The notes beneath the pieces were generated by a model. The model saw nothing but the letters and a program-made list of their open reading frames with translations, did no database searches and was not told the DNA's origin. DNA of 55,179 nucleotides, taken from positions 1 through 55,179 of IMG/VR virus record IMGVR_UViG_3300046734_000050; one strand, given 5' to 3'. Positions 22,753-54,692 of the stretch are shown here, one piece after another (position 1 is the stretch's first letter; every line of letters starts with the position of its first letter). This stretch comes from a virus (Duplodnaviria; Caudoviricetes). Made by a program: the position numbers and the translations under genes.

Positions 22753-24948
22753 ATGGCAGTACAACAAGAAATGCAAGAATCGTTTGCTAGGGTATTAGGT
22801 TATGATGGACCTATGCAAGGATTCAATAGCTTTATACAGTCAGACCCTGCAGCTTCAGAAAAGTATAAGGGTATGTTAGCCATTGCTGAAAAGCAAAGAG
22901 AGATGGCTAAACAAAATATGATGAAACGTACTCAAGCACCTAAACCACAGATGGCTCAAGGTGGTTACATGATGGATAGGTTTTCACAGAATCAACAACA
23001 AGATATGGTTGGTGGTTACGTGCCACCACCTACACAATCTTTTCGTGAAGGTGGTTTAGCAAATCCCGGATTATTACCTCAAGCTACTGCTTTTTATGGA
23101 GTAGATGGACAAGAAACTTCTTTATCTTTACCTGTACCAAATAAAGCAGGTGGTTTAACAACTCTACCTACTGCTAAACCACCAAGCCAAGACTTTCAAG
23201 ATGTAACTAAACCTGTATATGACACTAATCCATACTTAGCAGATGGCACTACACCTAACCCTAATTATGGTAAGGACACAGGAACTACAACTACTTCTGC
23301 TCCTAACATAGGAGAGATGGGTGCTCAGATGATAACAACACCCGGATTACCTACAGGCGGTGCGGTTGAAGCAGTAGGTGTGGATGCTGGGACAAATCAA
23401 TTTTTACAGACAACAACAGGTGGTGTAACACCAAGTGCTGTTGCTGTACCTACTACACTAGCTTCCACAGCCACAGCACAAGGACAGACTAAAACCACTC
23501 CTAGTGCAATAGAACCTGCTAAAGCAGAAACTTCGGTTAACACTGCATTACAGCAAACTCAAGCGGCTCAAGGTATTGTCGGTACTAATGCACAAGTAAC
23601 TGCACAACAGCAGGTAGCTAGTTCCGTATCCGAATTAAATGCAGCACAGGGTATTGCCACACAAATGACTAACCCTGTACAAAGACAAGTACAAGCTGGT
23701 GAATTAGTATCTCCTGTAGCTAACGCCGAAACAGCATCTACATATGCGGAACAAATACAGGCAGCAACAGCTACTCCTACAGAAAAGGCAACAGTGCAAG
23801 GGCAGCTTGCTAGTTTAACTGCTGACTTTGATGCAAGCAATCCTCCTGCGTGGGCAGCAGGTTCTTTACGTGCTGTACAAGCACAGATGGCACAAAGAGG
23901 TTTAGGTGCATCTTCAATGGCAGGGCAAGCTATGATTCAAGCGGCCTTAGAGTCAGCACTTCCAATAGCACAAGCGGATGCACAAATACAAGCACAGTTT
24001 GAAACACAAAACCTATCTAACAGACAGCAAAGGGCAATGCTTGCAGCTCAACAAAGAGCACAATTTATAGGTCAGGAATTTGACCAAGCATTTCAAGCAA
24101 GGGTACAAAACTCTGCACGTATAGGTGACATAGCTAATCAAAACTTTACTGCTGAACAAAACATAGCCTTAGAAAACTCTCGTGCTGTTAATACAATGAA
24201 CTTAAATAACCTGTCTAATAAACAAGCACTAGTTATAGCAGAAGCATCAGCACTTGCTAATATGGATATGTCTAACTTAAACAATAGACAACAATCTGCT
24301 GTACAAAACGCACAGTCTTTTTTGCAAATGGATATGGCTAATCTATCCAATACACAGCAAGCTAATATGTTTAATGCACAGCAAAGAATACAATCTTTGT
24401 TTACAGACACAGCTGCTGAAAACGCCGCTAAACAATTTAATGCTACATCACAAAATCAAGTTGACCAATTCTTTGCACAGCTAGGGCAACAAGCTAATCA
24501 GTTTAATGCTACACAAGTTAATGCACAAGAACAGTTTAATGCCGGGCAAAACAATACAGTAGAAAGATTTAATGCTGAATTGAATAATGCACGTGACATA
24601 TTTAATGCCCAAAACCAACAAGTAATAGCACAGTCTAATGCTAATTGGAGAAGACAGATAGCTTCAGCAGATACTGTAGCTGTCAATCGTGCTAACGAAC
24701 TTAATGCTCAAAGCATATTAGGTATAAGCAATCAAGCTTATAACAACTTATGGCAGTACTACGGTGACACTATGGAGTGGGCATGGACATCAGCAGAGAA
24801 TGAAAGAAGTCGTGTCGTTGATTTAGCAAAAGCACAATTAGCTGCCGATGCTAATGCTGATATAGCAAAAATGAAGAATGATTATAACTCATCAGCTGCA
24901 TTTGGTGGTCTTATGACTAAGTTTATTGGAGGAGCACTAGGATTCTAA
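22753..24948 (+). CDS. Putative internal virion / ejection protein, Gln/Ala/Asn-rich
   Basis: 731 aa; long QFNA/NLSN heptad-like repeats; position after tail genes. Confidence 0.65.
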   Translation: MAVQQEMQESFARVLGYDGPMQGFNSFIQSDPAASEKYKGMLAIAEKQREMAKQNMMKRTQAPKPQMAQGGYMMDRFSQNQQQDMVGGYVPPPTQSFREGGLANPGLLPQATAFYGVDGQETSLSLPVPNKAGGLTTLPTAKPPSQDFQDVTKPVYDTNPYLADGTTPNPNYGKDTGTTTTSAPNIGEMGAQMITTPGLPTGGAVEAVGVDAGTNQFLQTTTGGVTPSAVAVPTTLASTATAQGQTKTTPSAIEPAKAETSVNTALQQTQAAQGIVGTNAQVTAQQQVASSVSELNAAQGIATQMTNPVQRQVQAGELVSPVANAETASTYAEQIQAATATPTEKATVQGQLASLTADFDASNPPAWAAGSLRAVQAQMAQRGLGASSMAGQAMIQAALESALPIAQADAQIQAQFETQNLSNRQQRAMLAAQQRAQFIGQEFDQAFQARVQNSARIGDIANQNFTAEQNIALENSRAVNTMNLNNLSNKQALVIAEASALANMDMSNLNNRQQSAVQNAQSFLQMDMANLSNTQQANMFNAQQRIQSLFTDTAAENAAKQFNATSQNQVDQFFAQLGQQANQFNATQVNAQEQFNAGQNNTVERFNAELNNARDIFNAQNQQVIAQSNANWRRQIASADTVAVNRANELNAQSILGISNQAYNNLWQYYGDTMEWAWTSAENERSRVVDLAKAQLAADANADIAKMKNDYNSSAAFGGLMTKFIGGALGF

Positions 24949-25157: not shown

Positions 25158-25650
25158 ATTAAATGAAGTCGTACATGATGGTCCTGTAGCAGGTCAGTCT
25201 CTAACAGCAGAGTTTGGTGCTAGACCTTGGCAGAGTCCACCACAATATAATACACTAGAAGAAGCATTAGAGTGGTATGTACCTAGACTAACAAACAAAG
25301 CGTTTACTACAGAGTTATTTGATATAATAGAAATGGGAATACCATTAACTACTATAGCTAATAGTATGCAGTTGACAGCAGTTATGGAAGGTGTTCACTC
25401 GATTGATATAGGCATTTTAGTTACTCCTATTATAGTAGAGATGTTAGCCTATCTTGCAGACAGTCAAGATGTAGAATACAAAATAGGTAATGAAGAGCCT
25501 GAAGATGACGATACACCTAGTGAAGGTATGATAGCGGCGGCTCTGAACAAGTTAAAACAAGAAGAAGATAAACCTATTCCTGTCCCGGGAATAGATAATG
25601 AGGTTACTGAAGAAGAAGAGCCTAGTGGATTAATGGCAAGGAGAGCTTAA
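25150..25650 (+). CDS. Hypothetical virion-associated protein
   Basis: PVAGQSLT...RPWQSPPQY motif; acidic. Confidence 0.7.
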   Translation: MPELNEVVHDGPVAGQSLTAEFGARPWQSPPQYNTLEEALEWYVPRLTNKAFTTELFDIIEMGIPLTTIANSMQLTAVMEGVHSIDIGILVTPIIVEMLAYLADSQDVEYKIGNEEPEDDDTPSEGMIAAALNKLKQEEDKPIPVPGIDNEVTEEEEPSGLMARRA

Positions 25651-26921
25651 TGGGATTTAGTTTAGCAGGATTTATTGGTGGTGCAGCAACTCAAGGTTTA
25701 AAAGACATTGAGGCAGAGGAGCTACGTGTTAAAAAATTCTATGAGAAGGAACTTGACAGGTCTGTTGCAGAGCAGAGAGAGATGCGTAAAGACAGGCGTA
25801 AGAAAGTAGAATCTCGTATGGAACAAATAACTATGCTTGAGTCTTTCTTTGGGGATGACCCACAAGCTAGAAACATGGCGGCTAAAGTCGTAGCAGGTGG
25901 TACTGCTAATGTTAATATGATATTAAATACACTTCAAAAAGCTAGAGTTAATGGTGCGACAAAGGAAGATATGTTTAAGGCTATTCAGTATGTACCAGAT
26001 AAAGATGCACCTAATCAATCTTTTGAAACAGCTAAAGACGCTGCTGAATCAATCACAGAAGTGATTAAGCCTATTGAGTTTGATTCTATATCTTCCGCAG
26101 CCTCAAAGCAAACTAAAGGTTTATTTGGTAGGCTTGTTAATAAAGATAAAATCTTTAACACAATGGTTCAAGAATATAAAGACGTTGGTGGATTAAGAGA
26201 TGAGCCTAATGATAAAGTTGTTCAAGCTCTGAAGGGAACACTAAAGGTAGACTTTACTCAACTACCAACAGAGGTTAAGTCATTAGACCAAAACTTAAAT
26301 AGGGTAAGTGTAAGTATGTCTAAGCTAGATAAATCTAGTCCTACTTATCAGCAAGACTTTGACAAACTTAATAACGAAAAGAAACGTATCATAGGTATTA
26401 TGAATGAAAAAGCTATTGCTTTAGAAGGTACACCAACGGATACCTCTGCTAGTATATCTGTACTAGGTACAAACTTAAACAGTGTTATATCAGATGCGGA
26501 AAAGTCAGTAGGTTATGATAAAACTAAAAAGACAGCGATAGTAAATGGTCAACTAGTTGCGGTTGGCGATGCCCAAAAGATACGTAATAAAGTAGTTGAT
26601 AAGGCTAAGAAAGAATTTTTACTAACATTAGTAGATGGTAGTGGTCAGCCATTAAATAGTAAGGCTGCTTTTATAATAAGGTCAAGACTAAAAAATGAGT
26701 ATGAAGAGTTAATGGCTAGACTAGAAGGCAAGGAAGTAAAAAGCACAGTAGATAAAAAGGAAGAAGCAACTAAAATAGAGGTAGGTGTGGCTAAAAACTT
26801 TGGCTCTCCTGAAGCTTATCTAAATGACCGTAGAAAAAAGGGATTGAATAATGCTGCTATTAGAGTGATATTAAAACAAGCATACCCTAACGCAGACATA
26901 GATAAATTATTAAAAGGATAG
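25650..26921 (+). CDS. Putative internal virion protein
   Basis: 423 aa; Gly-rich amphipathic N-terminus MGFSLAGFIGGAA, then helical. Confidence 0.6.
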   Translation: MGFSLAGFIGGAATQGLKDIEAEELRVKKFYEKELDRSVAEQREMRKDRRKKVESRMEQITMLESFFGDDPQARNMAAKVVAGGTANVNMILNTLQKARVNGATKEDMFKAIQYVPDKDAPNQSFETAKDAAESITEVIKPIEFDSISSAASKQTKGLFGRLVNKDKIFNTMVQEYKDVGGLRDEPNDKVVQALKGTLKVDFTQLPTEVKSLDQNLNRVSVSMSKLDKSSPTYQQDFDKLNNEKKRIIGIMNEKAIALEGTPTDTSASISVLGTNLNSVISDAEKSVGYDKTKKTAIVNGQLVAVGDAQKIRNKVVDKAKKEFLLTLVDGSGQPLNSKAAFIIRSRLKNEYEELMARLEGKEVKSTVDKKEEATKIEVGVAKNFGSPEAYLNDRRKKGLNNAAIRVILKQAYPNADIDKLLKG

Positions 26922-26930: not shown

Positions 26931-29900
26931 GTGAGCAATACTAACTTTGAGCTACTGAACAATCTGTATGCTGATGAGGATATAAATGAAGAGAATAATA
27001 TTACCTCTCTGAATACCATCTATGGTGAATCTCAGATACCCGATGTTGAAGTAGAAGAGAAAGATGAAAACATAGAGTCCTTAAATAGCTTGTATTCTGA
27101 AGAAGAAGAGCAGACTATTGAGGATAAAAGACCTGCCGTTGAACAACTAGAACTCCCTGAAGAATCAACTAAAACATTAACTGAATTTGCCAACGATGAA
27201 AAGTTTATAGAAGACTTAAAGAAGTATGGTAAATCTAGATTTGGTGAGTCTGGTATTCCCCAAGAAGATGAAAGTAACGAAGACTACGTTAAACGTTTTA
27301 TAACACACACAAGGCAACTTGAAACTAATTCTCTAGACTTAGGTGCTCAAGTAGCTTGGATGCGTGGTGCTTCAGAACAAGAGAAAGCTAACTTTGGTAG
27401 AGTGTATCAAGAAATGGAAAGACTTCCATCCTTCTACGAAGAAGGTGGTACTAGTGTATTAAGTGCAGTTAAAGACTATGGTCTTTCTGTATTTACTGAC
27501 CCCTTAACTTACTTAGGTTTTGGTGTAGGTAAAGTTGTATCAGCAGGTGCTCAACAAGGAATCAAGAAACTTGTATTGGCAGGTGCAAAAGAAGCCGCTA
27601 TAAAACAATCCAATAAACTACTAACTAAAGGTGGGCTTAAGACAGGTCTGGCTGTAGGTGCTACTGAAGCAGGTGTAGGTGTAATCCATAGCTTAGGTGG
27701 TCAAGAGATACGACAAGAAGCAGGAATGGAACTTAAAGGTGAAGATGGTAAGGTAGACTACGACTTAGGTGAAGCTGCTTTATTCGGTACTATAGGTGGT
27801 GTGCTAGGCTTTGGTGGTGGTGTAGGCATGAGTCGAAGTTTGTCTAAAGGAGTAGCCAAGAAAGAGATTGGAAAACAAGAAGCACTAGAAGCTGCTGAAG
27901 AGACTGTAGAAGAAACAGGTTTAGAATTATCTGAAGAAGCTATAGAAAATGTAAATAAACAAAACTTTAAATTTGATGTCAACGAAGGTTATAAAGTATA
28001 TGACAAGCTTAGTCCTGACTTCGATGTAGGTAAGTTAACTGACGTTAAAATAAAGAAGGATATACAGAATAGAGTTGGTCAAATTGGTGTACAGCTATTA
28101 GAAGAGATAGAACGACAGGGCAAATATAAAGACCTACCCAAAGAAATACTTAGCGAGAAACAGGTTACTAAGTTTGTAGGTAGACTACTTGTAGAGCAGG
28201 GTGATGTCATTGATGATGATGTATTGGATGCTGCTATAAGTCGTTCAGGTTTGTCTATGGAACAATTTACTCAAGCACTTAACGCAGGTCAGAACGAAGC
28301 AGGTAGTATACTTGGTGGGTTTGGTCAAGCGGGTAAGGTGTTTAAGAGATTAAAAGAACTAGACCCTGAGTTTGAAAAAAGATGGCAGAATCTTTATGGC
28401 TTAGAAAGTGAGACCCTAGGTTTTATGAACAAGGCTTATACTGTAATGCAGAAGCTAGACCGAAACCGTAGAGCATTAATGGTTACTCAGCTATCTACTA
28501 CTATACGTAACGTAGCTACAGGTGGTATGCGTATGACTATGGAGATGGGTGCTAACGCTATTGAAACATCTTTATACCATTTAGGTAAAGCTACCTCTGC
28601 TGCTTTAAGAGGTGAGGGTAGTGTGCAAGGTATAAAGAATGGCTTAAAAGATATGGCGAAAGATGCCTTTGGTACTCTAGCTTTTATATCAGATTCAGGT
28701 CAGACAAAAGAAATAGCTGAAGCACTTCTCAAACATAATCCTAGATTATATAGACAGATAGACAGGTCTCTACAAGAGGTAGGTGCAGATAGTAGTGATG
28801 ATTTATGGAGATTTTCTAAGTGGGCTAACAGCCTAAACATGGCTCAGGACAGGTTCTTTAGACGTGCTGTATTCTCAGCTTCTGTTGATAAACAGATAAG
28901 AAGAACAGGACTTAAGGGATTAGGTGGTGAGGATGCCGCAGGTTTAGCCGAAGCTTTAGCTACAGGTAAGTCAGTTCCCGCTAGTGTTTTAAAACAAGCA
29001 ACGGAAGATGCACTTTCTTTTACTTTCTCTCGGATGCCTAAAGCACAGAAGGGTAAGATAGGAGATAGTATTGCTCATTACTTTATAAAGTTTAATGAAT
29101 CATTAGGTCCTATCCCCGGTCCTGTAGGTACAGCGGCATTTCCATTTGCTAGGTTTATGGCTAATGCCATGCAGTTTCAATTTAGTTATAGTCCATTGAG
29201 TATTCCTGCCGCAGCTTTTAATACTGTAGGTGGTGCAACTAAGTATATAAAGAAGGCTATCACAGGCAAGGGTGGTGAGGGTGCAGAAGCACAGATGCGA
29301 TTAGCTAGGGAGCAGTTCTCTAAAGCCACTGTAGGTAGTGCTGCTCTAGTAGCCGCTATTAAGTATAGAATAGACAACCCTGATATAAAATGGTATGAAG
29401 GTGAAAAGGAAGATGGTAGGACTGTAGACCTCAGACCTTTCTTTCCTATTACTCCGTACTTAGCAGTAGCTGATGTTATTGTAAGACTAGGTCAAGGAAG
29501 AGAGATTGATACTAAGCAACTCATAGAAGGTTTAACAGGTGCTCAGTTTAGAGCAGGTGCTAGTTCATATATGATTGACTCAGCCTTTGAGTTCATGCGT
29601 GAAGATGGCAGTAATATACAACAAGAAAAACTAGGAGAGTTCTTTGGTGGGTATGTAGGTGAAATCTTTGGTGGGTATGCCACACCATTTAGAGTAGTTA
29701 AAGACATAGATGCAGCGTTTAACAAAGATGCAGCTACAGTTAGAGACTCTCGTCAAGTAGAAGGAAGTGGTGCACTAGAACGTGGGTTGAGTGCAGCTAC
29801 AAATGCAATACAAAGAAACCTACCTTTCGTAGGTAAGGATTTACCTGCACTACAAAGTCCTACGCAGGAAGGTGATGTCATACAGCAAGACCCTTTAACA

Positions 29901-30395
29901 ACACAGTTGACAGGTCAAAAAATGACAGCTAGAAGAACTGCTGTACAAAGAGAATTAATAAAGCATGGATATGAAGACTATCAGATTATCCCAACTACAG
30001 GCGATAAAGCAGCTGATGCCTACATTAAAAAGTATATGGGTAAGCTAGTAGCAGATAGTTTAGCCAATGAAATTGAATCGGATTATTACAAGGGTCTTTC
30101 AAGAGTTAAGCAAGAGGCTGCCATTAAAAATAAACTAAGCTTGTATAGAGACATTGCTAAAACATTAGGTGAAGCTGAAGCTATTCAAGAAAATACTAAA
30201 GCGGGTAAAAGATTTACTCCCTTTGATAGGGCACAATGGACACGGATGAGTAAGGTTGGTAGGAAGTTAGCAGACGAATACTATAAAAATAAATATGGTA
30301 AAACGGTTGCGGAGATGCAGAAAGACGAGCCTGAAACTAATCATTTCTATATAGGAAAAACTATAGGCAATAGTCTAAGTAGTGCTTACAGATAA
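26931..30395 (+). CDS. Large internal virion / ejection protein
   Basis: 1154 aa, last gene of the structural arm; DPLTYLGFG and AFPFARF motifs. Confidence 0.65.
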   Translation: MSNTNFELLNNLYADEDINEENNITSLNTIYGESQIPDVEVEEKDENIESLNSLYSEEEEQTIEDKRPAVEQLELPEESTKTLTEFANDEKFIEDLKKYGKSRFGESGIPQEDESNEDYVKRFITHTRQLETNSLDLGAQVAWMRGASEQEKANFGRVYQEMERLPSFYEEGGTSVLSAVKDYGLSVFTDPLTYLGFGVGKVVSAGAQQGIKKLVLAGAKEAAIKQSNKLLTKGGLKTGLAVGATEAGVGVIHSLGGQEIRQEAGMELKGEDGKVDYDLGEAALFGTIGGVLGFGGGVGMSRSLSKGVAKKEIGKQEALEAAEETVEETGLELSEEAIENVNKQNFKFDVNEGYKVYDKLSPDFDVGKLTDVKIKKDIQNRVGQIGVQLLEEIERQGKYKDLPKEILSEKQVTKFVGRLLVEQGDVIDDDVLDAAISRSGLSMEQFTQALNAGQNEAGSILGGFGQAGKVFKRLKELDPEFEKRWQNLYGLESETLGFMNKAYTVMQKLDRNRRALMVTQLSTTIRNVATGGMRMTMEMGANAIETSLYHLGKATSAALRGEGSVQGIKNGLKDMAKDAFGTLAFISDSGQTKEIAEALLKHNPRLYRQIDRSLQEVGADSSDDLWRFSKWANSLNMAQDRFFRRAVFSASVDKQIRRTGLKGLGGEDAAGLAEALATGKSVPASVLKQATEDALSFTFSRMPKAQKGKIGDSIAHYFIKFNESLGPIPGPVGTAAFPFARFMANAMQFQFSYSPLSIPAAAFNTVGGATKYIKKAITGKGGEGAEAQMRLAREQFSKATVGSAALVAAIKYRIDNPDIKWYEGEKEDGRTVDLRPFFPITPYLAVADVIVRLGQGREIDTKQLIEGLTGAQFRAGASSYMIDSAFEFMREDGSNIQQEKLGEFFGGYVGEIFGGYATPFRVVKDIDAAFNKDAATVRDSRQVEGSGALERGLSAATNAIQRNLPFVGKDLPALQSPTQEGDVIQQDPLTTQLTGQKMTARRTAVQRELIKHGYEDYQIIPTTGDKAADAYIKKYMGKLVADSLANEIESDYYKGLSRVKQEAAIKNKLSLYRDIAKTLGEAEAIQENTKAGKRFTPFDRAQWTRMSKVGRKLADEYYKNKYGKTVAEMQKDEPETNHFYIGKTIGNSLSSAYR

Positions 30396-40809: not shown

Positions 40810-41712
40810 TTACATGCTTTTAACATGGCTTTTTCGTAATGTCAATGCATTATTTGCAGATTCATACGTATTTTTCATGTAAGGTTTGACCGATTGAGGG
40901 TTAGCATGACCTGTAACGGACATAATTTGACCCATAGACACACCTGCTTCTACCATTTCAGTCGTTCCTGTACGTCTTAAGTCTGAAATACGTAGTGTAT
41001 CAGGTAAATTAGCTAAGTCCATCACTCTACGTGCCACTTTTGATAGCCTTTGCATGGTATAAGGTGCATACTTACCACCTTTTGCAGTAGGATAGGGTGC
41101 TACGTAAGGCTGAAAGTCATAATCTTTTGCCTGTTGTTTAAGCATTTCTAATAAGTCAAGTGAAATAGGTAGATGAACTACACTTCTTCTCTTGGACTGT
41201 TGTAAATTTAGCACACTTTTATCAAAGTCAATGCTAGAAAACTGCAACATTCGCATATCTCCCACCCTCTGACACCATTCGTAAGACATTTGTACAATCA
41301 ATCCTATGTTTCTGTACTTGAAATCAGCATAAGCTGCATCCAAAAACTGTATGACTTGGTCTTGTGTCCATACTGTGTTCCTAGAATGGGGTGTCTTACG
41401 TTTGTAAGTAGCAAATGGATTAGTCTCAGCATAACCCATCTCCATCCCATAAGAATATATCTTACGAGCAACAGAAGTAATGGCATTAGCTTGATATATA
41501 CCACGACCAAGCCACTGCTCATACGCTCTTCTAGCTATTGCTCCTGTCATTTTAAGAAGACTTATTCCCGCCACACTTTTGCCATCAACTTCAGTAGCCA
41601 ATAAAACTCCTGCACAATATTGATAATCATGTTTAGTTTTATCAGCTAACACCTTGAAATCATTAGATAAATAATACTTATCTACTAAGTCATTCAAATT
41701 TAATTTTGTCAT
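40810..41712 (-). CDS. int: Tyrosine recombinase / integrase
   Basis: QRVGD (R), QSKR (K), DLRRTG, TGHAN, PY catalytic set. Confidence 0.9.
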   Translation of the reverse strand: MTKLNLNDLVDKYYLSNDFKVLADKTKHDYQYCAGVLLATEVDGKSVAGISLLKMTGAIARRAYEQWLGRGIYQANAITSVARKIYSYGMEMGYAETNPFATYKRKTPHSRNTVWTQDQVIQFLDAAYADFKYRNIGLIVQMSYEWCQRVGDMRMLQFSSIDFDKSVLNLQQSKRRSVVHLPISLDLLEMLKQQAKDYDFQPYVAPYPTAKGGKYAPYTMQRLSKVARRVMDLANLPDTLRISDLRRTGTTEMVEAGVSMGQIMSVTGHANPQSVKPYMKNTYESANNALTLRKSHVKSM

Positions 41713-46583: not shown

Positions 46584-46765
46584 TAGTTGTACTCCTTCAC
46601 ATATAAAAATTCTATTCTCTCGTTTGGGTGAACTGCTCTAGCAGTATCCATAGCATGTTCAATTGCATACTCCCATGATGCATCAGGTAGGGCATCAGAG
46701 TGGACATTAACTTGCCCACTCTCTGCACCTATCTTGATACCTACTTGCCAATATGGTATTGTCAT
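46583..46765 (-). CDS. Hypothetical protein
   Basis: 60 aa, TAATG-coupled. Confidence 0.65.
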   Translation of the reverse strand: MTIPYWQVGIKIGAESGQVNVHSDALPDASWEYAIEHAMDTARAVHPNERIEFLYVKEYN

Positions 46766-47142
46766 TAGGCTACCTTTCTCTTTCTGCCTAGCTTAGACTT
46801 GGCTAGGTCTTTGAGGTTACTTACTTTGAAAGAACCATAGCTTTTACTATTGAACTCTTTCCCTTTTCTGATTGCTCTGCAAACTGAGGTTAAGTCTTGT
46901 ATTAAGACCATGAAAGCAGTAGTCGCAGTATTCTGTATGTAGAATCCTTCGTCTGCTTTAGCACCTCTAGACATCTCTAAAGACAGCTTGTACAGTTTCA
47001 TCTTAGATAGTGGTAAACCTACCACCTCTTCATATATAGGCTGAAGAGTATCAAAAAGGTTTTGACCTCTCTCGCTTAAACATTGACCTGTACGACCTGT
47101 AGATTGCTTCCAATAGGAAACGTTGAATGTCTTCTTACTCAT
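46765..47142 (-). CDS. Early hypothetical protein
   Basis: 125 aa, AAGGAG RBS, basic C-terminus RKRKVA. Confidence 0.75.
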   Translation of the reverse strand: MSKKTFNVSYWKQSTGRTGQCLSERGQNLFDTLQPIYEEVVGLPLSKMKLYKLSLEMSRGAKADEGFYIQNTATTAFMVLIQDLTSVCRAIRKGKEFNSKSYGSFKVSNLKDLAKSKLGRKRKVA

Positions 47143-47195
47143 AGTGTTCTCCTTTCATTGAGAGTTAGTGTCCAACATTGGACAGTTACTTTGCA

Positions 47196-47336
47196 TTATG
47201 CAAAATTCCGTTCTTGTATGTTACGTTTAACTTTACGTAAGGCTTGTCTGTCTCGCTTCCAATCATCACGTTTATCTTTCTTGACTGTCTTCTTAACAGA
47301 AATCTTTTCAAATGTTTCGTATTTAATCTTTCGCAA
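47196..47336 (-). CDS. Small basic early protein (TTG start; not in ORF track)
   Basis: GGAG 6 nt before TTG; MRKIKYETFEKISVKKTVKKDKRDDWKRDRQALRKVKRNIQERNFA. Confidence 0.65.
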   Translation of the reverse strand: MRKIKYETFEKISVKKTVKKDKRDDWKRDRQALRKVKRNIQERNFA

Positions 47337-47411
47337 TTTAATCTCCAATAGTTATAATAATATATATATAATACTTTCATATACATTTAAGTATTATATA
47401 TATTATAATTG

Positions 47412-48146
47412 TTATATGTACTTAGCACCTGTTCCATGTCCTACAATAGCAATGCTCTTTGCATTGATAACTGAACCACTACAAAGCTTACAGCTTTCAC
47501 AGGTAGTACGTCTACCTGCTTCTTCTGATGCAGGACATAGAACTTCTTCACCTTTGACTACAGAGTCAACAGATTTGATTACTCTGAAGGTTCTGATACC
47601 ACTAGCCCAAGCACTTTGTGCTTCTTCTAGAGTGTCAGCACTCTTCATACAAAGGTCATATCTTTGATTGACCTTCTGATGTGTATAGCCCGTTCTACCT
47701 TTTGAGTAAGATAGAAGGCTATCCCAAATATAAGATGGTACTGCTGATGGGTCACCATAAGACCCAAGTCTTATGATGTTATCCTTGCCAAGTTCAGCTA
47801 AATCATTATGTCCTTGAACATAATCATAATTACCCTTCTTGTATGTTTTCCAAACATTCAAAGGTGCTTGGTAGATTGCAACATAGCAAGCCCTATTTTC
47901 AGCTAACTTCCTATCGGAAGAAGCATCAACAGCAGTACCTCGAAGCTTACAGTCTCCACAAATAGAATAGTCCAAGCCAAGCTTATTAGCTTCACGTGGG
48001 TCTATGTCCTTGCAAAGTATCCATGTCTGTATCATGCTACCTGTCTTGCTATTGCTAGAATCCTTATCAAATCCCGTTGCAATAACAACAATATCTTGAC
48101 CATCAATCATTGATTGACCTTCATATAAAATGTAACCATTAGCCAT
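47412..48146 (-). CDS. Cys-rich early protein, possibly Fe-S or Zn binding
   Basis: NSKTG, ICGDC...CYV, RLGSYGDP, GYTHQ, CPAS...TCESCKLC. Confidence 0.75.
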   Translation of the reverse strand: MANGYILYEGQSMIDGQDIVVIATGFDKDSSNSKTGSMIQTWILCKDIDPREANKLGLDYSICGDCKLRGTAVDASSDRKLAENRACYVAIYQAPLNVWKTYKKGNYDYVQGHNDLAELGKDNIIRLGSYGDPSAVPSYIWDSLLSYSKGRTGYTHQKVNQRYDLCMKSADTLEEAQSAWASGIRTFRVIKSVDSVVKGEEVLCPASEEAGRRTTCESCKLCSGSVINAKSIAIVGHGTGAKYI

Positions 48147-48225
48147 TGTATTCTCCGTGATGTTTAAGTTATATATATAATAAATATACTTTCATATACA
48201 TTCAAGTATATTTATTATTATATTA

Positions 48226-48459
48226 CTAAAGTTTTTTATCTAGTGCAGTCCATAGTCCATCAAGTTCATTGATGTCGTAGTATCCATAGCCTAGCTTTTT
48301 ACCTTCGGTATCTTCTATGTAAAAACCTCTATCATCAGACTGCCACTTCTCCCATATATTTCCAATATATCCAAATGAATAATCTTTTGGAAGATTGTTT
48401 TCAATCTTATCATAGTACTTACGGAACTTCTCTCTATCAATATCTTTAAAATGTATCAT
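48226..48459 (-). CDS. Early hypothetical protein
   Basis: 77 aa, GGAG RBS. Confidence 0.7.
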   Translation of the reverse strand: MIHFKDIDREKFRKYYDKIENNLPKDYSFGYIGNIWEKWQSDDRGFYIEDTEGKKLGYGYYDINELDGLWTALDKKL

Positions 48460-48460
48460 T

Positions 48461-48712
48461 TTAATACTCCCTAACTCTATCGTAGATATAAAGATACTCT
48501 TTAATATCTAGTAATATTTCATCATACTCTTTCTTTGCCAAGTCTTTTAACCCTTCCTCATAGGAAGAATAACTAGAAACGATTTGATTAAGAGATATGT
48601 ATCGTAAGACACAACTCCCTTCCTTAAGGTTTTCAACCTTTTCTAGCACGTACCTGCTACCCTTTGCTATGATGTCAGAAGGCAAATCTTGATATCCATA
48701 ATTAAATCTCAT
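48461..48712 (-). CDS. Early hypothetical protein
   Basis: 83 aa, GGAG RBS. Confidence 0.7.
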   Translation of the reverse strand: MRFNYGYQDLPSDIIAKGSRYVLEKVENLKEGSCVLRYISLNQIVSSYSSYEEGLKDLAKKEYDEILLDIKEYLYIYDRVREY

Positions 48713-48760
48713 ATTAATCTCCGATTAAAAGTTAAAATTAAAGTGTCCAACATTGGACAG

Positions 48761-49030
48761 TTAGTACTCATCAGAGTACACTTCTCCGAAGTCTTCCCAC
48801 TCCTGCTCCCATGAAGGCTGACCATCATCTTCGTCTTCTTCTCCGAAGAACTCAGCCCACTCCGAAGGAGTTACACCTGTCTTAATGAACTCTCGTTCAT
48901 CAGCAGATAAGTTTGGCATGGCATCTTGAATAAGAGTACCATTCTCCCAAGAGCTTAATTGCTCTTGAGTTACATCAATGTCCATTGTATGAACATTGTT
49001 AGTAAAAGCTGACATTCTTGTAATTTTCAT
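48761..49030 (-). CDS. Early acidic protein
   Basis: LIQDAMPNLSADEREFIKTG core plus acidic tail EEDEDDGQPSWEQEWEDF. Confidence 0.8.
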   Translation of the reverse strand: MKITRMSAFTNNVHTMDIDVTQEQLSSWENGTLIQDAMPNLSADEREFIKTGVTPSEWAEFFGEEDEDDGQPSWEQEWEDFGEVYSDEY

Positions 49031-49133
49031 AATAAACTCCGTTTAAGTTAAAGTGTCCAACATTGGACTGTTTAAGTTATATATATAATAAATAATATTT
49101 CATTAAAATATTATATTATTTATTATTATATTA

Positions 49134-49349
49134 CTAATTGTTTCGGAAATGGTGGATTATAAATAATCCTGTCATTAACAAAGTTAATCCCATTGCTCCG
49201 ATTAAACCAACAAACATTATTCCCAAAGGGAATCCTTGGTTGATTGCTTCGCTCATGTAATAACCTTCCTCTTCTGATAAGGTTATCCAAGCCATTAAAG
49301 TTACAGGTATTCCTAAAAGGAATATTAATACTCCATCTAATTTACTCAT
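49134..49349 (-). CDS. Early two-TM membrane protein
   Basis: Two hydrophobic helices; GGAG RBS. Confidence 0.7.
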   Translation of the reverse strand: MSKLDGVLIFLLGIPVTLMAWITLSEEEGYYMSEAINQGFPLGIMFVGLIGAMGLTLLMTGLFIIHHFRNN

Positions 49350-49350
49350 T

Positions 49351-49617
49351 TTAAACTCCGTTTAACATTTCATCTAACATTGCAATAGCTTCGCTATTGT
49401 CAGAGTGTCCAACATTGGACAGTTTACCTTTGGTAAGAGCTTCTTTGAACATCTTAGTTTCAAGTTCATTCTTTCTTGAAACATAAACTTCCAATGGCTC
49501 ATCATGGTCTTTGACCATCTGAATCCAATTACTTCGTAATGGTTTATGTTTATAATTAGAACCAAAGCTTCGCTTTACAGTAGTTTTACACCAAAGTTTT
49601 CTTTTAAGTCTCGCCAT
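49351..49617 (-). CDS. Early hypothetical protein containing one 14-bp site
   Basis: 88 aa; LSNVGH is encoded by the palindrome. Confidence 0.75.
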   Translation of the reverse strand: MARLKRKLWCKTTVKRSFGSNYKHKPLRSNWIQMVKDHDEPLEVYVSRKNELETKMFKEALTKGKLSNVGHSDNSEAIAMLDEMLNGV

Positions 49618-49724
49618 GTTTATCTCCTAAGATATATATAATAATTAATACTTTCGTAAGTATTCAAGTATTAATTATTTATATCTCTAAATGTTAAAGT
49701 TATCATTCACAAAGAAGATAGCTG

Positions 49725-50327
49725 TTAAGCTACCTTCTTAAGGTTATCTTCTTCTAAAAGAGCTAATTGCTCTTTAAGGGCTTTGATGAAGTCACTCTTT
49801 GAGATACCATTGGTATCACAAGCTAGTATAGCTTCAAAAGCTACATCAGAAGCTGAAAGCTTCTTTTGAACCTTCGGTTCTTCTTTGACAGACTGTCCAA
49901 CATTGGACTCTTCAGAAGAAGTATCTTCTGTAGTTTGAGACTCTGTCTCATCTTGAACCTTTGGTTCATCTTTTGGCTTATTAGCCAAGCTGTAAGCTCT
50001 TTGCAGAGCAGTTAAAGAGGTAAACCTCTTCTTAGGGTTTTGGTTTAACCAAGTGACTATGTCACTATGATTGGAGAATAACCATAAAGCTTCGCTTTTT
50101 CTTCTTCTATCGATGGAATTAATTCCATACTTTAAGGCTAAAGCCTTACTAATAATCTTAACATTTTCAATGGTTAAGATTTCAGACTGTAGCTTTCCAA
50201 GCTCAAAGTCAAAACTCTCCTTGCTGAAAACCATCTTTGTAGTTTTCACTTTCAAAGCCTTTTGCTCTTTGTTGTAGATTTTAGTTAAGTTTGAACCGAT
50301 TGACTGAAGTGTTGAAATGTTAGTCAT
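49725..50327 (-). CDS. First early gene; candidate DNA-binding protein containing one 14-bp site
   Basis: 200 aa; FELGKL...GINSIDRRRKSEALWLFSN helical basic segment; acidic linker with ESNVGQ encoded by the palindrome. Confidence 0.8.
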   Translation of the reverse strand: MTNISTLQSIGSNLTKIYNKEQKALKVKTTKMVFSKESFDFELGKLQSEILTIENVKIISKALALKYGINSIDRRRKSEALWLFSNHSDIVTWLNQNPKKRFTSLTALQRAYSLANKPKDEPKVQDETESQTTEDTSSEESNVGQSVKEEPKVQKKLSASDVAFEAILACDTNGISKSDFIKALKEQLALLEEDNLKKVA

Positions 50328-50398
50328 ATGTTTTCTCCTAAGTTATATTAATTAAATTTAAACACCTTTCGTAAGAACTCAAGGTGCTTTAAATTTAA

Positions 50399-50427
50399 TA
50401 TATAACTAAATGGTTTCGGTTTGTCAA
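50399..50427 (-). promoter_or_regulatory. Sigma70-like early promoter
   Basis: Minus strand TTGACA-N17-TATATA upstream of the first early gene. Confidence 0.75.
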
Positions 50428-50562
50428 GCCATCAATAGACTTTGTCGAAGTAAGTATCGACATTGTTTTTTTAAGAAGACTTCAACAGTCCAACATTGGA
50501 CACTTAACTTACTACCACTAGGGTAGTAAAAAAGCCATACTCCTCCACTCCGTACTACCTCT

Positions 50563-50890
50563 TGTTGCAAAAATGTCACACTTCTCATCGAAGATGAATA
50601 GGAAACTGATAGTAAATGAGTTGTTTACTTAGAATAAGTACTTGATTTTACTACATTTTATATGCTTTAGCATATAGAGCTTGGGAAGAAGTCTTCAATT
50701 CTATCAGAAAAGACTCTTTGAGATGAGAACTCTAGCCAATCCCTAGCCCTCGGCAGGGGTCAGTGGGGGGTAGGGGTTATATATATATACAGAAATACAC
50801 AGATTAGGAAAACTAAGTGTTAACTACAATAGAAACTGTACAAACATATACACACAAGCACACACAAATAAGTGTTGCATTTATATCACA
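50563..50890. promoter_or_regulatory. Two 18-bp imperfect palindromes TGTTGCA-N4-T(G/A)TCACA
   Basis: 50563-50580 and 50873-50890; the second overlaps a -35 box. Confidence 0.55.
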
Positions 50891-50903
50891 CGCATGTTAT
50901 AAT
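50875..50903 (+). promoter_or_regulatory. Sigma70-like promoter with extended -10
   Basis: TTGCAT-N17-TATAAT with TG-n before the -10. Confidence 0.65.
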
Positions 50904-50928
50904 CGTACATGCCTAAAAATAATTGGGG

Positions 50929-51049: not shown

Positions 51050-51106
51050 CACATAAGTAATCCTCCCTAATAAATATATCCGTAATAAATAAAAAGTTGC
51101 TTGACA

Positions 51107-51319
51107 ATGAAACGAAAATCAGTAAAACTATATACACCAGAGAATATGTTAGAAGCATTTTATGATGCTATCCGTAATAACAAACTAAAAGAATTGCACA
51201 TTCCCCATAGTTCCGTATTTTATGTACGTGCTGCTATTGAAGCCGACACTGGAGTGCGATACACTCTGAAACATGTAGAGACTGCAATGAAGGCAGAAGG
51301 GATGTTAAATGATGTTTGA
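51107..51319 (+). CDS. Hypothetical protein
   Basis: First ORF of the plus arm; LHIPHSSVFYVRAAIE; start uncertain. Confidence 0.65.
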   Translation: MKRKSVKLYTPENMLEAFYDAIRNNKLKELHIPHSSVFYVRAAIEADTGVRYTLKHVETAMKAEGMLNDV

Positions 51320-51791: not shown

Positions 51792-52391
51792 ATGTCTGAA
51801 GACGTTATAAAAAAATATAAACAAAGATTAAAAAAAGATTTAGTGCAACCTAAGTCTAAAAAAGAAACAACTAAAAAAAAATCAAGCTTGACTAAGCCTA
51901 AAAGTTCTAAGCTAGGAACAGGTAGTAAAAGCAGTGGTTCAAAAAATCCTACTACTGTAAAAAATATAAAGGAAAAGAAAAGCATACTATCTGGAATGAA
52001 TTTTAAAGATATATTTAATACGTACATTGCAGGTTCTAAGACTAAAATTAAACCAAAGAAAAAAACAACATCAACTAAAACAAAAACGATGTCCGATAAA
52101 TATAAAACTCAAATGTCTAAAATAGCTAAAAATGAAAAAGGTGTCAAGTCTTCTCAAAATGACGCAAACAAATACTCTAAGTTAAAAAGTGACGCTACTA
52201 AAAAGCTAATGAATAAAAAGAAAAGCACAACCACTAAAAAGAAAACACCTATAGTAACTAAAGAGCAGTTAAGAAAATCAGGTCTAACCTTACGTGATTA
52301 CATGAATATGTTACAAGGTAAAACACGTAGAGATTATAAGGATGTTAAAAAAGCAGCCGTAAAGAAAAGAGCAAAAGGAGCAATCACATGA
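51792..52391 (+). CDS. Lys-rich basic protein
   Basis: 199 aa, very K/S/T-rich; GGAG RBS; VTKEQL..SGLTLRDYMN. Confidence 0.75.
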   Translation: MSEDVIKKYKQRLKKDLVQPKSKKETTKKKSSLTKPKSSKLGTGSKSSGSKNPTTVKNIKEKKSILSGMNFKDIFNTYIAGSKTKIKPKKKTTSTKTKTMSDKYKTQMSKIAKNEKGVKSSQNDANKYSKLKSDATKKLMNKKKSTTTKKKTPIVTKEQLRKSGLTLRDYMNMLQGKTRRDYKDVKKAAVKKRAKGAIT

Positions 52392-53149
52392 GTGCAAAAG
52401 CAAAATTAGCCGCTAATATATTAAAAGCTTTAGGTAAAAAAACTAGCAAGAAGAAAAAAGAGTTAGAAGCAAAGACTCTTAAAGAGTTAAAAAAAGAAGC
52501 AAAATTAGTTCAGGGTCATTCATCCGATAGAAAAACAAATTTTAAAGATGCACGTAAAAAAACAGATAACAAAAAAGTTACTGAAACTTTAAAAAAAGAA
52601 CAGAAAAGACAATTAAACGTTAACAAAAACCAAAAGTCAGGTGGAGGCGTAAATAAAATTGTAAGAGGTGATGAAAGTAAAGATGCTCTTAAAACTGCAC
52701 CTATGACACAAAAAGAACTAAAAGCACAAGGTGCAGTAAGTGGACCTTCTTCTATGGCATTTATGGCTGCTATTAAAGGTAAAGCAAAAGCCTTAGCTGA
52801 ACAAGTACAAAAGAAAAAGAAGCTGTATGATAATTTATCTGCCTCAGATAAAAAAGGAGAAAAAGGACAGCTACTACAAAATGCTATTAAAGATATGCAG
52901 AAGAAACTAAAAGGTCAAGTACCTATTCGTACTTTACGAGACGCAAATCTTTTAAATAAAGGTGGATTAGCTACGCCTAAGCCTAATCAAACAGGATTAA
53001 AGAAACTACCTACTACTGTACGTAACAAGATGGGTTACATGTATGGTGGTGGAATAGCTAAGAAAAAGAAAACAGGAAGTATGGACTACCGTAAGGGTGG
53101 ACTTGTAATAATGATAGGCATGGGTAAACCTAAGAAAGGAACAAAATAA
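52388..53149 (+). CDS. Lys-rich basic protein with KGG motifs
   Basis: 253 aa; LNKGGL, GLKKLP..VRNKMGYMYGGG, DYRKGGL. Confidence 0.75.
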   Translation: MSAKAKLAANILKALGKKTSKKKKELEAKTLKELKKEAKLVQGHSSDRKTNFKDARKKTDNKKVTETLKKEQKRQLNVNKNQKSGGGVNKIVRGDESKDALKTAPMTQKELKAQGAVSGPSSMAFMAAIKGKAKALAEQVQKKKKLYDNLSASDKKGEKGQLLQNAIKDMQKKLKGQVPIRTLRDANLLNKGGLATPKPNQTGLKKLPTTVRNKMGYMYGGGIAKKKKTGSMDYRKGGLVIMIGMGKPKKGTK

Positions 53150-53442
53150 TGGCTATGGATGCGAAAAAAGGAATGACTGATGCACAGATAATGAAACAGA
53201 TTATCAAAGATGCAACTAAAGGTCTAAAGGGTGAAGAAAAACAAAAGGTAATTAGAGACTTATTTGTTAAAGTTATGCCAAAACCAAAAGGCATGACAAA
53301 CAAAAAGAAAACAACCATGACTACTAAAAAAATGACAGCAGCTAAAGGTGGTATGGCTAAGAAAACTAAGTACATGGCTAAGGGTGGTGCAACTAAAAAG
53401 ACTAAGTACATGGCTAAGGGTGGAGCTGCTAAAAAGAAGTAA
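53149..53442 (+). CDS. Basic protein with tandem AKGG repeats
   Basis: AAKGGMAKKTKY-MAKGGATKKTKY-MAKGGAAKKK; 36-bp period in the DNA. Confidence 0.75.
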   Translation: MAMDAKKGMTDAQIMKQIIKDATKGLKGEEKQKVIRDLFVKVMPKPKGMTNKKKTTMTTKKMTAAKGGMAKKTKYMAKGGATKKTKYMAKGGAAKKK

Positions 53443-54146
53443 TGTCTTATCTGATAAGTAACGTACCACATTTTAAATGTTGGGTACGTAGGGAGTTCAC
53501 ATGTAATCATCTGGACTACCACGGAGAATATCTCCACGCATTAGCGTTTGCCGTGAATACCATACCTGACAGGTCATTAAGTTTTCAGGTAGTCTTTACT
53601 GGAAGTACTGAAGAAGATAATGTACATGGTGGTGCTATGTGGGCTAGGATGCCAATACAAGCACTTGTAGCTGATATACCTGTAGATGAATGGGCAGAGC
53701 CAATGGAAGACCACTTGTGTCAACCTTGGGATTGTGAGTCTAGGCATCATAGTGTTATAGTAATGGACAGAGTAAGTTCTAGTCCATGGCTGTGTAAGAT
53801 AGACAATGAGTTCTACAAAGCTAAGTATATGTTTACAGTGGACTATACTGACAGTGATATAGCAGATGACCCTGCACAGCATAAACAATCACACGTAATG
53901 TATTTGATTGATGCAGGTAAATGGACAGGTAACATTGTAGCCTTACCGAATAACAGAGTAAGAGCCACAAGTCCTGCTTTATGGGTTACAGGTGAAGGTG
54001 CTCCTGATTTTACACCATCACAGTGGACACACTCAGCAGAGTCACATGAGTCTTACTTAGACCCATATACTACATTTAATAATCTTTATGAGGATAGAGA
54101 TGGCAATAAAAAAAGCAAAAGCAACAATAAAAAAAGTAGCAAGTAA
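53442..54146 (+). CDS. Conserved hypothetical protein
   Basis: 234 aa; VHGGAMWARMPI, QPWDC, DDPAQHKQSH, ALPNNRVR. Confidence 0.8.
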   Translation: MSYLISNVPHFKCWVRREFTCNHLDYHGEYLHALAFAVNTIPDRSLSFQVVFTGSTEEDNVHGGAMWARMPIQALVADIPVDEWAEPMEDHLCQPWDCESRHHSVIVMDRVSSSPWLCKIDNEFYKAKYMFTVDYTDSDIADDPAQHKQSHVMYLIDAGKWTGNIVALPNNRVRATSPALWVTGEGAPDFTPSQWTHSAESHESYLDPYTTFNNLYEDRDGNKKSKSNNKKSSK

Positions 54147-54387
54147 ATTAAAGAAAGCTAGTAAAGCACATGCAGGTCAGGCAAAGGCTTTATCTAAAAT
54201 TAAGTTAAGTAAAGGCGGGAGTACAGTAAACAGTGCTGGGAATTATACTAAACCATCCATGCGTAAGCGATTATTTAGCCAAATCAAGTCGGGTGGTTCA
54301 GGCGGTGCACCCGGTCAATGGTCTGCAAGAAAAGCCCAAATGCTTGCCAAACAATATAAAGCTAAAGGCGGTGGATATAGAAGCTGA
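54100..54387 (+). CDS. Basic conserved protein
   Basis: NYTKPSMRKRL...GQWSARKAQMLAKQYKAKGGGY. Confidence 0.8.
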   Translation: MAIKKAKATIKKVASKLKKASKAHAGQAKALSKIKLSKGGSTVNSAGNYTKPSMRKRLFSQIKSGGSGGAPGQWSARKAQMLAKQYKAKGGGYRS

Positions 54388-54692
54388 TGAAGAAGAAGAA
54401 GGCAGACCCTAAAGTTGGCACAGGTAAAAAACCAAAGGGCAGTGACAGAAGACTGTATACGGATGAAAATCCTAAAGACACAGTTAGTATCAAGTTTGCC
54501 ACAGTCGCAGATGCCAAAGCAACCATTGCAAAAGTTAAGAGAATTAATAAACCGTTTGCGAGAAAGATACAGATACTTACAGTCCTTGAACAACGAGCCA
54601 AAGTATCTGGGAAGAAAGAGCAAGCAAGACTTGCAAGAATAGCAAAAGAGCAATTAAGAAAGAAACACGAAAATGATAAAAGAAAAGTGTGA
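54387..54692 (+). CDS. Basic conserved protein
   Basis: DPKVGTGKKPKGSDRRLYTDENPKDTV. Confidence 0.8.
   Translation: MKKKKADPKVGTGKKPKGSDRRLYTDENPKDTVSIKFATVADAKATIAKVKRINKPFARKIQILTVLEQRAKVSGKKEQARLARIAKEQLRKKHENDKRKV

Follow-up and report, generated by a model that had tools for sequence, protein, structure and literature searches.

The stretch of DNA analyzed here (the window) comprises 55,179 bases and is the complete virus record IMGVR_UViG_3300046734_000050 of IMG/VR (CheckV 100%, GC content 37.6%), the genome of an HMO-2011-type podophage. Its structural genes are encoded on the plus strand, and the minus strand carries the genes for the polymerase, helicase, primase, and a tyrosine integrase (40810..41712) together with a block of small genes of unknown function. 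The early region harbors six copies of the perfect 14-bp palindrome GTCCAACATTGGAC, which are the subject of this work, and the product of the first early gene, a protein of 200 amino acids (aa), is the most likely candidate for their binding partner. The features of the locus are listed below with their window coordinates.

47170..47183: palindrome copy 1, 2 nucleotides (nt) past the stop codon of the minus-strand open reading frame (ORF) 47186..47386 and 27 nt upstream of the ATG of the minus-strand gene 46765..47142, with AAGGAG in between
48745..48758: palindrome copy 2, 2 nt past the stop codon of the minus-strand gene 48761..49030, with GGAG separating it from the ATG of gene 48461..48712, which it precedes by 32 nt
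49055..49068: palindrome copy 3, 24 nt ahead of the ATG of gene 48761..49030 within a spacer rich in A+T, again with GGAG in between
49407..49420: palindrome copy 4, within the 3' part of gene 49351..49617, where the frame reads SNVG (KLSNVGHS), and 57 nt ahead of the ATG of gene 49134..49349
49895..49908: palindrome copy 5, located in the first early gene and encoding S141-N-V-G144 (EESNVGQS) in a disordered acidic linker
50488..50501: palindrome copy 6, ending 60 nt upstream of the −35 element of the early promoter-like site and outside that transcript
49725..50327, minus strand: first early gene, coding for the 200-aa protein of an unannotated family, the proposed palindrome binder
50399..50427, minus strand: early promoter-like site TTGACA (50427-50422), 17 nt, TATATA (50404-50399), a consensus match only
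50340..50409, minus strand: long hairpin, presumably part of the 5' leader of the first early gene
46765..49617, minus strand: array-bearing early genes of unknown function (49351..49617, 49134..49349, 48761..49030, 48461..48712, 48226..48459, 47412..48146, and 46765..47142)

The six exact matches to GTCCAACATTGGAC in the window were all on the plus strand (47170, 48745, 49055, 49407, 49895, and 50488), with spacings of 1575, 310, 352, 488, and 593 bp, so that the array was confined to ~3.3 kb; the core CCAANNTTGG was found at the six palindrome sites only. When up to two mismatches were tolerated, no additional site appeared genome-wide (12 rows, corresponding to the six sites on both strands), whereas 100 dinucleotide-preserving shuffles yielded a mean of 0.32 and a maximum of 2 rows, and none of them reached 12. 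At up to one mismatch, the whole record gave six forward, no reverse, and no control matches. A preliminary description of this DNA, made from the sequence alone, had reported these six copies and no others, with the same spacings and a uniform CA center on the plus strand, two of them in frame as SNVG, two (47170 and 48745) behind stop codons, and one ~60 bp upstream of the early −35 box; all of this was reproduced when the record was rescanned and the spacings were recomputed. The neighboring genes are on the minus strand, and the center therefore reads TG in the sense of the transcript.

The palindromes were ruled out as intrinsic terminators. Their stems comprise 5 to 6 bp (−4.9 to −6.5 kcal/mol), no T run was present in the flanks of the six copies, and some copies entered the terminator scan only via loosely T-rich tails such as CTTTAATTTT. 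A search of positions 46500-51200 with Rfam 15 (E ≤ 1) retrieved two sub-threshold chance matches, neither at a palindrome, and a tRNA scan found nothing. The leader hairpin at 50340..50409 gave a sub-threshold match to a microRNA precursor, which reflects its hairpin shape.

An exact scan of IMG/VR for the motif gave at least 120 stretches, and the counts given here cover the 120 listed. Among these, 33 contained 3 to 10 copies of GTCCAA-NN-TTGGAC; by a rough estimate, a random 14-mer would turn up singly in a collection of this size. The clustering seen in the window thus recurs in relatives, and arrays of the general form GTCC(A/G)A-YR-T(T/C)GGAC, each with 3 to 9 copies, were found in many HMO-2011-type contigs. 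Their centers were CA (58), TG (57), CG (30), GG (6), or CC (4), in both orientations, and the uniform orientation noted in the preliminary description did not hold as a general trait. The length of the center was fixed: 256 sites had 2 nt, none had 0, 1, 3, 4, or 6 nt, and three had 5 nt. The sites were also sharply defined, with 380 exact outer arms versus four near-sites with one mismatch when the consensus inner hexamer was kept. The relatives analyzed were the best 80 of 197 from IMG/VR and the best 80 of at least 592. Gene calls in relatives are crude longest-ORF calls, and because loci retrieved by one search are related, raw counts overstate independence.

Seven cultured phages were compared (CRP-1, CRP-345, HMO-2011, CRP-207, CRP-2, CRP-603, and CRP-9; CRP-13 was left out). 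The Roseobacter phages CRP-1 and CRP-345 carry four copies each in their first 12 kb, CRP-1 with one more upstream of its first gene, and HMO-2011 has five copies of the variant GTCCG-ACAG/CTGT-CGGAC. Neither an array nor a gene of the 200-aa family was present in CRP-207, CRP-2, CRP-603, and CRP-9. The hosts of the motif phages differ, being Roseobacter RCA for CRP-1 and CRP-345 and SAR116 for HMO-2011 with its variant. A copy with GG center (GTCCAAGGTTGGAC) is kept within the integrase gene of CRP-1 (6868), CRP-345 (7079), and the relatives L011 (10203) and L119 (10785); the integrase gene of the window (40810..41712) contains no palindrome copy.

The presence of the sites was closely linked to that of the 200-aa family. 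BLASTP identified the family in 26 of the 33 palindrome-cluster stretches versus 5 of the 87 others. For a second comparison, 80 loci were fetched via the neighboring divergent 72-aa gene. The 200-aa family was encoded at 12 of these 80 loci, all 12 had GTCC-N6-GGAC sites, and 11 had three to seven of them, the twelfth being cut at a contig end. Conversely, among 37 loci with at least 2 kb of upstream DNA and without the family, 36 had no site, one had a single unrelated match, and none had two or more. Gp74 of HMO-2011, which accompanies the variant palindrome, is a distant family member (E = 1.7e-22 versus the family profile). The 72-aa neighbor itself (51101..51319) was rejected as binder, since loci with 90 to 92% identical copies, as well as CRP-207 (61%), were without sites.

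Sites and protein also vary together. Of 93 non-identical family loci, 69 had A·T at base pair 5/10 of the palindrome, 13 had G·C, two had G·T, six were mixed, and three were not scorable; both half-sites changed together. Residue 106 was Thr in 68 of the 69 A·T loci; at the G·C loci it was Ser (10 of 13) or Lys (3 of 13), and it was Ser at both G·T loci. In the N-domain tree, about eight switches between A·T and G·C were counted, at least six of which were forced by well-supported branches. In the nearest-neighbor pairs examined, the G·C or G·T partner always had Ser106 and the A·T partner Thr106, and residues 110 and 113, one and two turns further on the same helix face, co-changed in most pairs. 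Five independent pairs on supported branches changed in the same direction in 4.6 cases on average and never in the opposite one; the trait's own columns were excluded from the tree. On these sequence comparisons, the co-variation between site and residue 106 appears strong, if not formally significant. The association of Thr with the thymine-bearing pair and of Ser with the cytosine-bearing pair would fit a contact to the thymine methyl group. The product of 49725..50327 had been one of three candidate binders named in the preliminary description, and it is the one that was found to co-occur and co-vary with the sites.

The 200-aa protein consists of a basic helical N-domain (residues 1-120, net charge +11), an acidic disordered linker (121-155, −6), and a two-helix C-domain (156-200, −2) that ends in KKVA. 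Its family comprised at least 3018 clusters at E ≤ 0.001 among 8000 candidates scored; none of these clusters had a Pfam domain, and the sole name they bore was 'hypothetical protein'. Scans of the protein and its family with Pfam, NCBIfam, and PHROGs gave nothing usable, and ESM Atlas returned unnamed viral clusters and chance-level rows only. In a profile search against the chain sequences of the PDB nothing better than E = 0.22 (CLIP1) was retrieved, followed by the basic helix-loop-helix protein BMAL1 at E = 0.48, both of which were treated as chance. The AlphaFold model is all-helical with a mean predicted local distance difference test (pLDDT) value of 86, residues 129-152 falling below 50, and the N-domain folded alone reached a pLDDT of 85 and a predicted template modeling score of 0.74.

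A model with two copies of the protein scored 0.77 compared with 0.52 for the best control. Of 30 proteins solved as pairs, 20 came up to this mark, as did 1 of 23 solved as single chains; these counts apply only approximately, since an alignment of our own was used. In the dimer runs at least 75% of the contacts agreed, and the partner pLDDT was at least 74. The modeled interface is formed by residues 2-21, 39-53, 66-76, and 156-191 and leaves helix 105-116 free. The modeling supports a symmetric homodimer.

In comparisons of the structures by VIA-align, the top match of the N-domain was the operator-bound DNA-binding domain of KorB (1r71_A, Z = 4.8, root mean square deviation 3.8, 88 residues). 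Spo0J (1vz0_A) followed with a Z of 4.0 for the N-domain, and the whole model matched SopB (3mky, Z = 3.7) and KorB (8qa8, Z = 3.5). Such weak matches to DNA-binding domains of the ParB family, together with dispersed identical palindromes and a dimeric binder, would fit a centromere (parS)-like site or a nucleoprotein array that serves in segregation, in DNA entry, or to protect the DNA injected first, as the preliminary description had favored. The Z-scores lie in the chance range for helical proteins. Moreover, no ParA-like ATPase gene was identified by PHROGs among the 72 ORFs of the whole genome, and an N-terminal ParB-type domain was found in none of 31 family members by Pfam (E ≤ 0.1) and in none by NCBIfam. 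The phage encodes a tyrosine integrase, and, according to an excerpt of PMC6918029, its relative CRP-3 integrates into a tRNA gene. A search of 185,579 bacterial and archaeal genomes with family patterns gave 92 pattern matches, none of which was a relative, and hence no prophage copy is on record there. We consider a centromere-like role highly improbable. The dimeric phage protein acting on sites other than promoter-overlapping operators, as proposed in the preliminary description, stood up to the analysis through co-occurrence, co-variation, and the homodimer model; the centromere part of that proposal did not.

The anatomy of the sites was determined at 65 loci whose first early genes are non-identical. 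A copy was located inside this gene at 63 of the 65 loci and within 500 nt upstream of it at 54. Among the downstream copies, 124 of 186 had, no more than 40 nt away, a Shine-Dalgarno sequence together with the start codon of an ORF of 30 or more codons, versus 684 of 2900 random control positions from the same stretches, and the claim that the sites keep away from gene signals had to be abandoned. The distance from site to start showed a sharp mode at 19 to 21 nt. Typically, a stop codon is followed by the palindrome, about ten bases, GGAG as Shine-Dalgarno sequence outside the palindrome, and ATG. The sense-strand center of the sites adjacent to a ribosome-binding site (RBS) was TG in 79 and CA in 21 cases; copies upstream of the first early gene showed no orientation bias (TG 25, CA 21). 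The peptide encoded by the internal copy is always Ser-Asn-Val-Gly, and the acidic stretch around it is not conserved. In the model this copy falls into the stretch with pLDDT below 50, which suggests that SNVG is retained for the DNA sequence and not for a peptide or fold.

The stereotyped order of stop, palindrome, Shine-Dalgarno sequence, and ATG would also fit an RNA element, in which each copy forms a 5-bp stem with an AUGU-type loop 5' of the RBS and the 200-aa protein or a host factor controls translation, processing, or stability, much like the operators of T4 RegA or of coat proteins. The six window sites had pair probabilities of 0.7 to 1.0, with −4.9 kcal/mol for the hairpin alone and a loop of 4 nt, and the switches from A·T to G·C preserve pairing. 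The TG excess was seen at RBS-adjacent but not at upstream copies, and in hybrid sites the sense strand carried G·T in 17 cases and A·C in one. A cluster of RegA-type translational repressors appeared in ESM Atlas (score 0.90, 128 shared features), which is at chance level and serves as a lead only. Against an RNA element, one copy is located beyond the promoter-like site on its upstream side and another in mid-gene far from starts, no Rfam match was obtained at the palindromes, and wobble variants were absent at stem positions 1-4 among the 380 exact sites and four near-sites. C-to-T changes are favored on the non-template strand, and both strand asymmetries could arise from this bias without selection. 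We regard the RNA element as rather unlikely.

Several features of the sites argue for duplex DNA as the target. The dyad symmetry reaches the bases beside centers of 1 to 2 nt, in this and in other lineages, and these bases are unable to pair in a hairpin. Conservation is lowest in the center, which would form the loop and which is found in either orientation even before genes (ACAG/CTGT in HMO-2011; AGT, ACT, ACA, and TGT in L268). One copy is situated upstream of the promoter-like site both in the window and in close relatives, at 60 and 80 nt from the −35 element; similar promoter-like sites were identified in the close relatives L133 and L134. We infer that DNA is clearly, if not overwhelmingly, favored over RNA as target.

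Perfect, directional-looking 20-mers in front of genes recall the promoters of phage polymerases, and the palindromes might accordingly serve as promoters or pause sites for an unrecognized polymerase or a host factor, or as repeats that shuffle early cassettes. The window encodes large unannotated virion ORFs (22753..24948, 25650..26921, and 26931..30395). In addition, some RNA-library contigs of relatives lose likeness at 47167 and 48761, a few bases from the palindromes at 47170 and 48745, which hints, from contigs only, that homology between relatives can break there. The RNA-library evidence consists of assembled contigs of relatives that give no starts, ends, or strand, and parts without coverage are uninformative. 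The strict co-occurrence and co-variation with the 200-aa protein speak against the involvement of another factor, as do the different hosts of the motif phages. The palindromic symmetry and the free orientation of the center are unlike promoters of single-subunit polymerases and oppose a phage-polymerase promoter. A sigma-70 promoter at each site was rejected because there is no space between site and Shine-Dalgarno sequence, −10-like hexamers merely overlapping the ATG. Likewise, gene indels between the window and its closest IMG/VR relatives were not at the palindromes, which were rejected as cassette breakpoints. We consider this explanation very improbable and the least likely of those discussed.

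Other lineages of the group have other palindromes. Among 23 relatives without the 200-aa family, 11 carried another perfect palindrome in the same early region and 12 carried none. The following palindromes were found.

GTCCCAA-S-TTGGGAC: ten copies, six loci (L236, L237, L245, L247, L249, and L250)
GTCTGA-NNN-TCAGAC: nine copies, three loci (L267-L269)
GTCACT-C-AGTGAC: seven copies, one locus (L259)
TCATAG-N-CTATGA: six copies, one locus (L243)

These palindromes abut the Shine-Dalgarno sequence, and GTC (or TC) opens each of them, GAC (or GA) being at the other end. Each such lineage has its own first early protein of ~200 to 250 residues with a tail of the Lys-x-Ala type, and an acidic or Ser-rich linker is visible in most of these proteins. 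In two of the other lineages the palindrome is again located in linker codons, for example as SQVG in L245. Profile-profile comparison (hhalign) with the 200-aa family gave a probability of 29% for the first early protein of group A3, restricted to linker and C-terminus, and no match for those of groups A4 and A5. The picture that emerges is one of a modular regulator, whose overall build is common to the lineages and whose variable N-domain is matched to a palindrome of its own. Unrelated first early proteins (window, L245, L259, L268, L280, and L257) share short basic-then-small tails (KKVA, KKSA, RKAA, KIAS, QEAA, and KAVA). We take these tails to resemble C-terminal ClpX recognition tags, in which case the regulator would be short-lived.

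A variable N-domain that differs with the palindrome, combined with a linker and C-terminus that are faintly alike, could also describe an initiator of replication of the lambda O type, whose N-domain would bind the repeats and whose conserved C-domain would recruit helicase or primase. In lambda O, the sites reside in linker codons of its own gene, which compares with the internal copy that 63 of 65 family genes have in their linker codons, and the phage has helicase, primase, and polymerase genes with no recognized initiator among the scanned ORFs. The single sites are, however, spread over 3.3 kb, one internal (49895) and the others 310 to 1575 bp apart, and do not form a tandem cluster beside an A+T-rich unwinding stretch, and most of them are at the RBSs of unrelated early genes. 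A replication origin is therefore quite improbable in our view.

Taken together, the six palindromes are, on balance, probably the cognate sites of the protein encoded by the first early gene, which would form a regulator with dispersed operators over the early operon. From the sequence comparisons, the sites are most likely dispersed operators of a new dimeric DNA binder that governs this operon, as their linkage and co-variation with the protein suggest. According to this model, host RNA polymerase would start at the strong, near-consensus early promoter, and the 200-aa protein would be made first. It would pair as a symmetric homodimer, with each basic N-domain recognizing a single GTCCA half-site in double-stranded DNA and helix 105-116 touching base pair 5/10 through Thr106. 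The dimer would then sit on the copy that precedes its promoter, on the one within its gene, and on those between stop codon and Shine-Dalgarno sequence of the downstream early genes. Such occupancy would most likely limit or shut off early transcription by autoregulation and roadblocks, and the array would act as a timing or immunity device after the fashion of mycobacteriophage stoperators and of the operators of the plasmid protein KorB. The dispersed sites around the promoter, in the regulator's own gene, and before most early cistrons suggest negative feedback or shut-off, and by analogy with known systems, a device of this kind with promoter-distal roadblocks would be the simplest reading. 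The protein may also be an immunity determinant, because the phage has an integrase.

Several points weigh against dispersed DNA operators. No clear DNA-binding fold can be assigned to the 200-aa protein: Foldseek searches of the PDB with both models gave nothing at E ≤ 0.001, and the VIA-align matches (Z = 3.5 to 4.8) are within the chance range and a lead only. The most helix-turn-helix-like, recognition-helix-like element of the protein is the Arg-rich helix 74-85, yet it does not co-vary with the site class; identical strings occur with the A·T and G·C classes, and this helix was rejected as specificity reader. The sign test for co-variation is at its floor (p = 0.0625) with five supported pairs. 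The stereotyped place before the Shine-Dalgarno sequence, the TG excess at RBS-adjacent sites, and the 5-bp hairpin predicted in the mRNA would fit an RNA element too, and the same applies to the G·T bias of hybrid sites, which comes from only two or three lineages. The promoter calls are consensus matches only. Finally, the sign of the effect, repression as opposed to activation or another outcome, is a deduction from the analogous systems.

Early repressors of the lambda Cro/434 type are small dimers that bind palindromic operators of 14 to 17 bp and lower early transcription in lytic growth. The window resembles them in that a small dimer would be encoded by the first gene of an early operon. 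Their operators are tandem triplets that overlap early promoters, whereas the sites described here are single, dispersed, and mostly promoter-distal; the 200-aa protein is also larger, has two domains, and belongs to no known family. Another parallel is offered by the stoperators of cluster A mycobacteriophages. As described in parts of PMC9283540, these are asymmetric 13-bp sites for a repressor of the L5 gp71 type that are read by a monomer and occur in one orientation. Excerpts of PMC9283540, PMC6550527, and PMC3203893 place them mostly in short intergenic gaps distal to promoters, where the bound protein stops elongation, and report that stoperator and repressor specificities co-evolve. 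As far as these excerpts go, both systems have many identical short sites of one phage DNA binder that are dispersed through operons, and site and protein co-evolve in both. Unlike stoperators, the sites of the window are 14-bp palindromes with centers that occur in both orientations, a homodimer is modeled, and the array is within ~3.3 kb. Furthermore, the binder is the product of the first gene of the decorated operon and not a separately expressed lysogeny repressor, and the 200-aa protein has no sequence match to solved repressors (PDB profile, best E = 0.22).

The OB operators of plasmid RK2 are, according to parts of PMC11790492, palindromes in a dozen copies at varied promoter distances that are bound by dimers of KorB, a CTPase clamp of the ParB family that silences at a distance. 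A short palindrome and dispersed operators are common to both systems, and the KorB domain was the top weak structural match (Z = 4.8, in the chance range). In contrast to KorB, the 200-aa family is without the ParB/CTPase N-domain (0 of 31), no ParA or KorA partner was seen among the 72 ORFs, and there is no sequence likeness. Start-associated sequences (SAS) and extended SAS (ESAS) of cluster K mycobacteriophages also recall the sites of the window. In the sections of PMC3203893 on them, SAS are asymmetric 13-bp sequences that contain the Shine-Dalgarno core 3 to 7 bp from the start, and ESAS are imperfect 17-bp inverted repeats with a variable spacer of 4 to 13 bp and a consensus that varies by subcluster; both precede the starts of many unrelated genes in the non-structural genome half, and their function and binder are given there as unknown. 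The window shares with them repeats before start codons in the non-structural half of the genome. It differs by a perfect palindrome with fixed spacing that excludes the Shine-Dalgarno sequence, by a distance of 19 to 21 nt from the start, and by a candidate binder.

A full-text literature search for the motif strings retrieved no paper, and palindromes, inverted repeats, and promoters are absent from the main text, supplements aside, of two genomic papers on the phage group (PMC6918029 and PMC9038755). As judged from sequence, what appears new is a dispersed-operator module whose protein family is unrelated and unannotated, whose palindromes are arranged next to RBSs, and whose regulator has an operator in its own linker codons. 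In the surface ocean, HMO-2011-type phages rank with the most abundant viruses, and almost all of their early genes are unannotated; to our knowledge, nothing is known about the timing of their infection program. The module is a testable unit with a family of at least 3018 clusters, an exact 14-bp target, and a natural switch of Thr106/Ser106 versus A·T/G·C, and it is carried by three cultured phage-host systems (CRP-1, CRP-345, and HMO-2011).

On a more speculative level, the arrays might constitute a fast-evolving 'early-operon immunity code', in which each lineage marks its cistron boundaries with its own palindrome and makes the matching dimer first; we hold this to be a tentative and rather unlikely proposal. 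A resident or co-infecting phage might then silence an incoming genome that bears the same mark, a consequence we view with similar doubt. Immunity pressure of this kind would explain the repeated A·T/G·C switches (Thr106Ser, at least five to six times) as well as the wholesale swaps of N-domain and palindrome between lineages. Given the fixed RBS-adjacent place, it is conceivable that one protein targets each site in its DNA form and in its mRNA form alike. If roadblocks or an immunity code were to apply, the logic of mycobacteriophages and IncP plasmids would be extended to marine podophages with an unrelated protein.

Further observations were made in the window. The gene at 44639-45865 codes for a C-5 cytosine DNA methyltransferase (Pfam E = 4.8e-53). 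A methyltransferase gene was present at just 2 of 33 palindrome-cluster loci, and most array-bearing relatives are without it. The fully symmetric form of the palindrome has a CpG center (AACGTT), of which TG and CA centers are the deamination products.

On the plus strand, the interval that separates the upstream palindrome from the early promoter contains a hairpin that resembles a terminator and has a T run (50443-50472). It is directed away from the early genes and could halt transcription that is antisense or divergent. A further feature of the divergent early control region is ~110 nt of non-coding DNA with a C-rich/G-rich island (50752-50860), which is the sole part of 46500-51100 with a nucleotide match to HMO-2011 (53523-53631, 76%) and CRP-345. 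It is unannotated in both phages, gave no Rfam or tRNA match, and is covered by RNA-library contigs; it could be attP, an origin, or a small RNA.

Downstream of the 72-aa gene, the plus strand (51506-54692) encodes a run of very lysine-rich, low-complexity proteins, mostly without family matches, for example 51792..52391, 52388..53149, 53149..53442, 54088..54387, and 54387..54692. These may be internal virion proteins or DNA-condensing proteins. In the structural module (22753-30395), consecutive ORFs of 731, 69, 166, 423, and 1154 aa had no match in PHROGs or Pfam; their products are presumably internal or ejection proteins.

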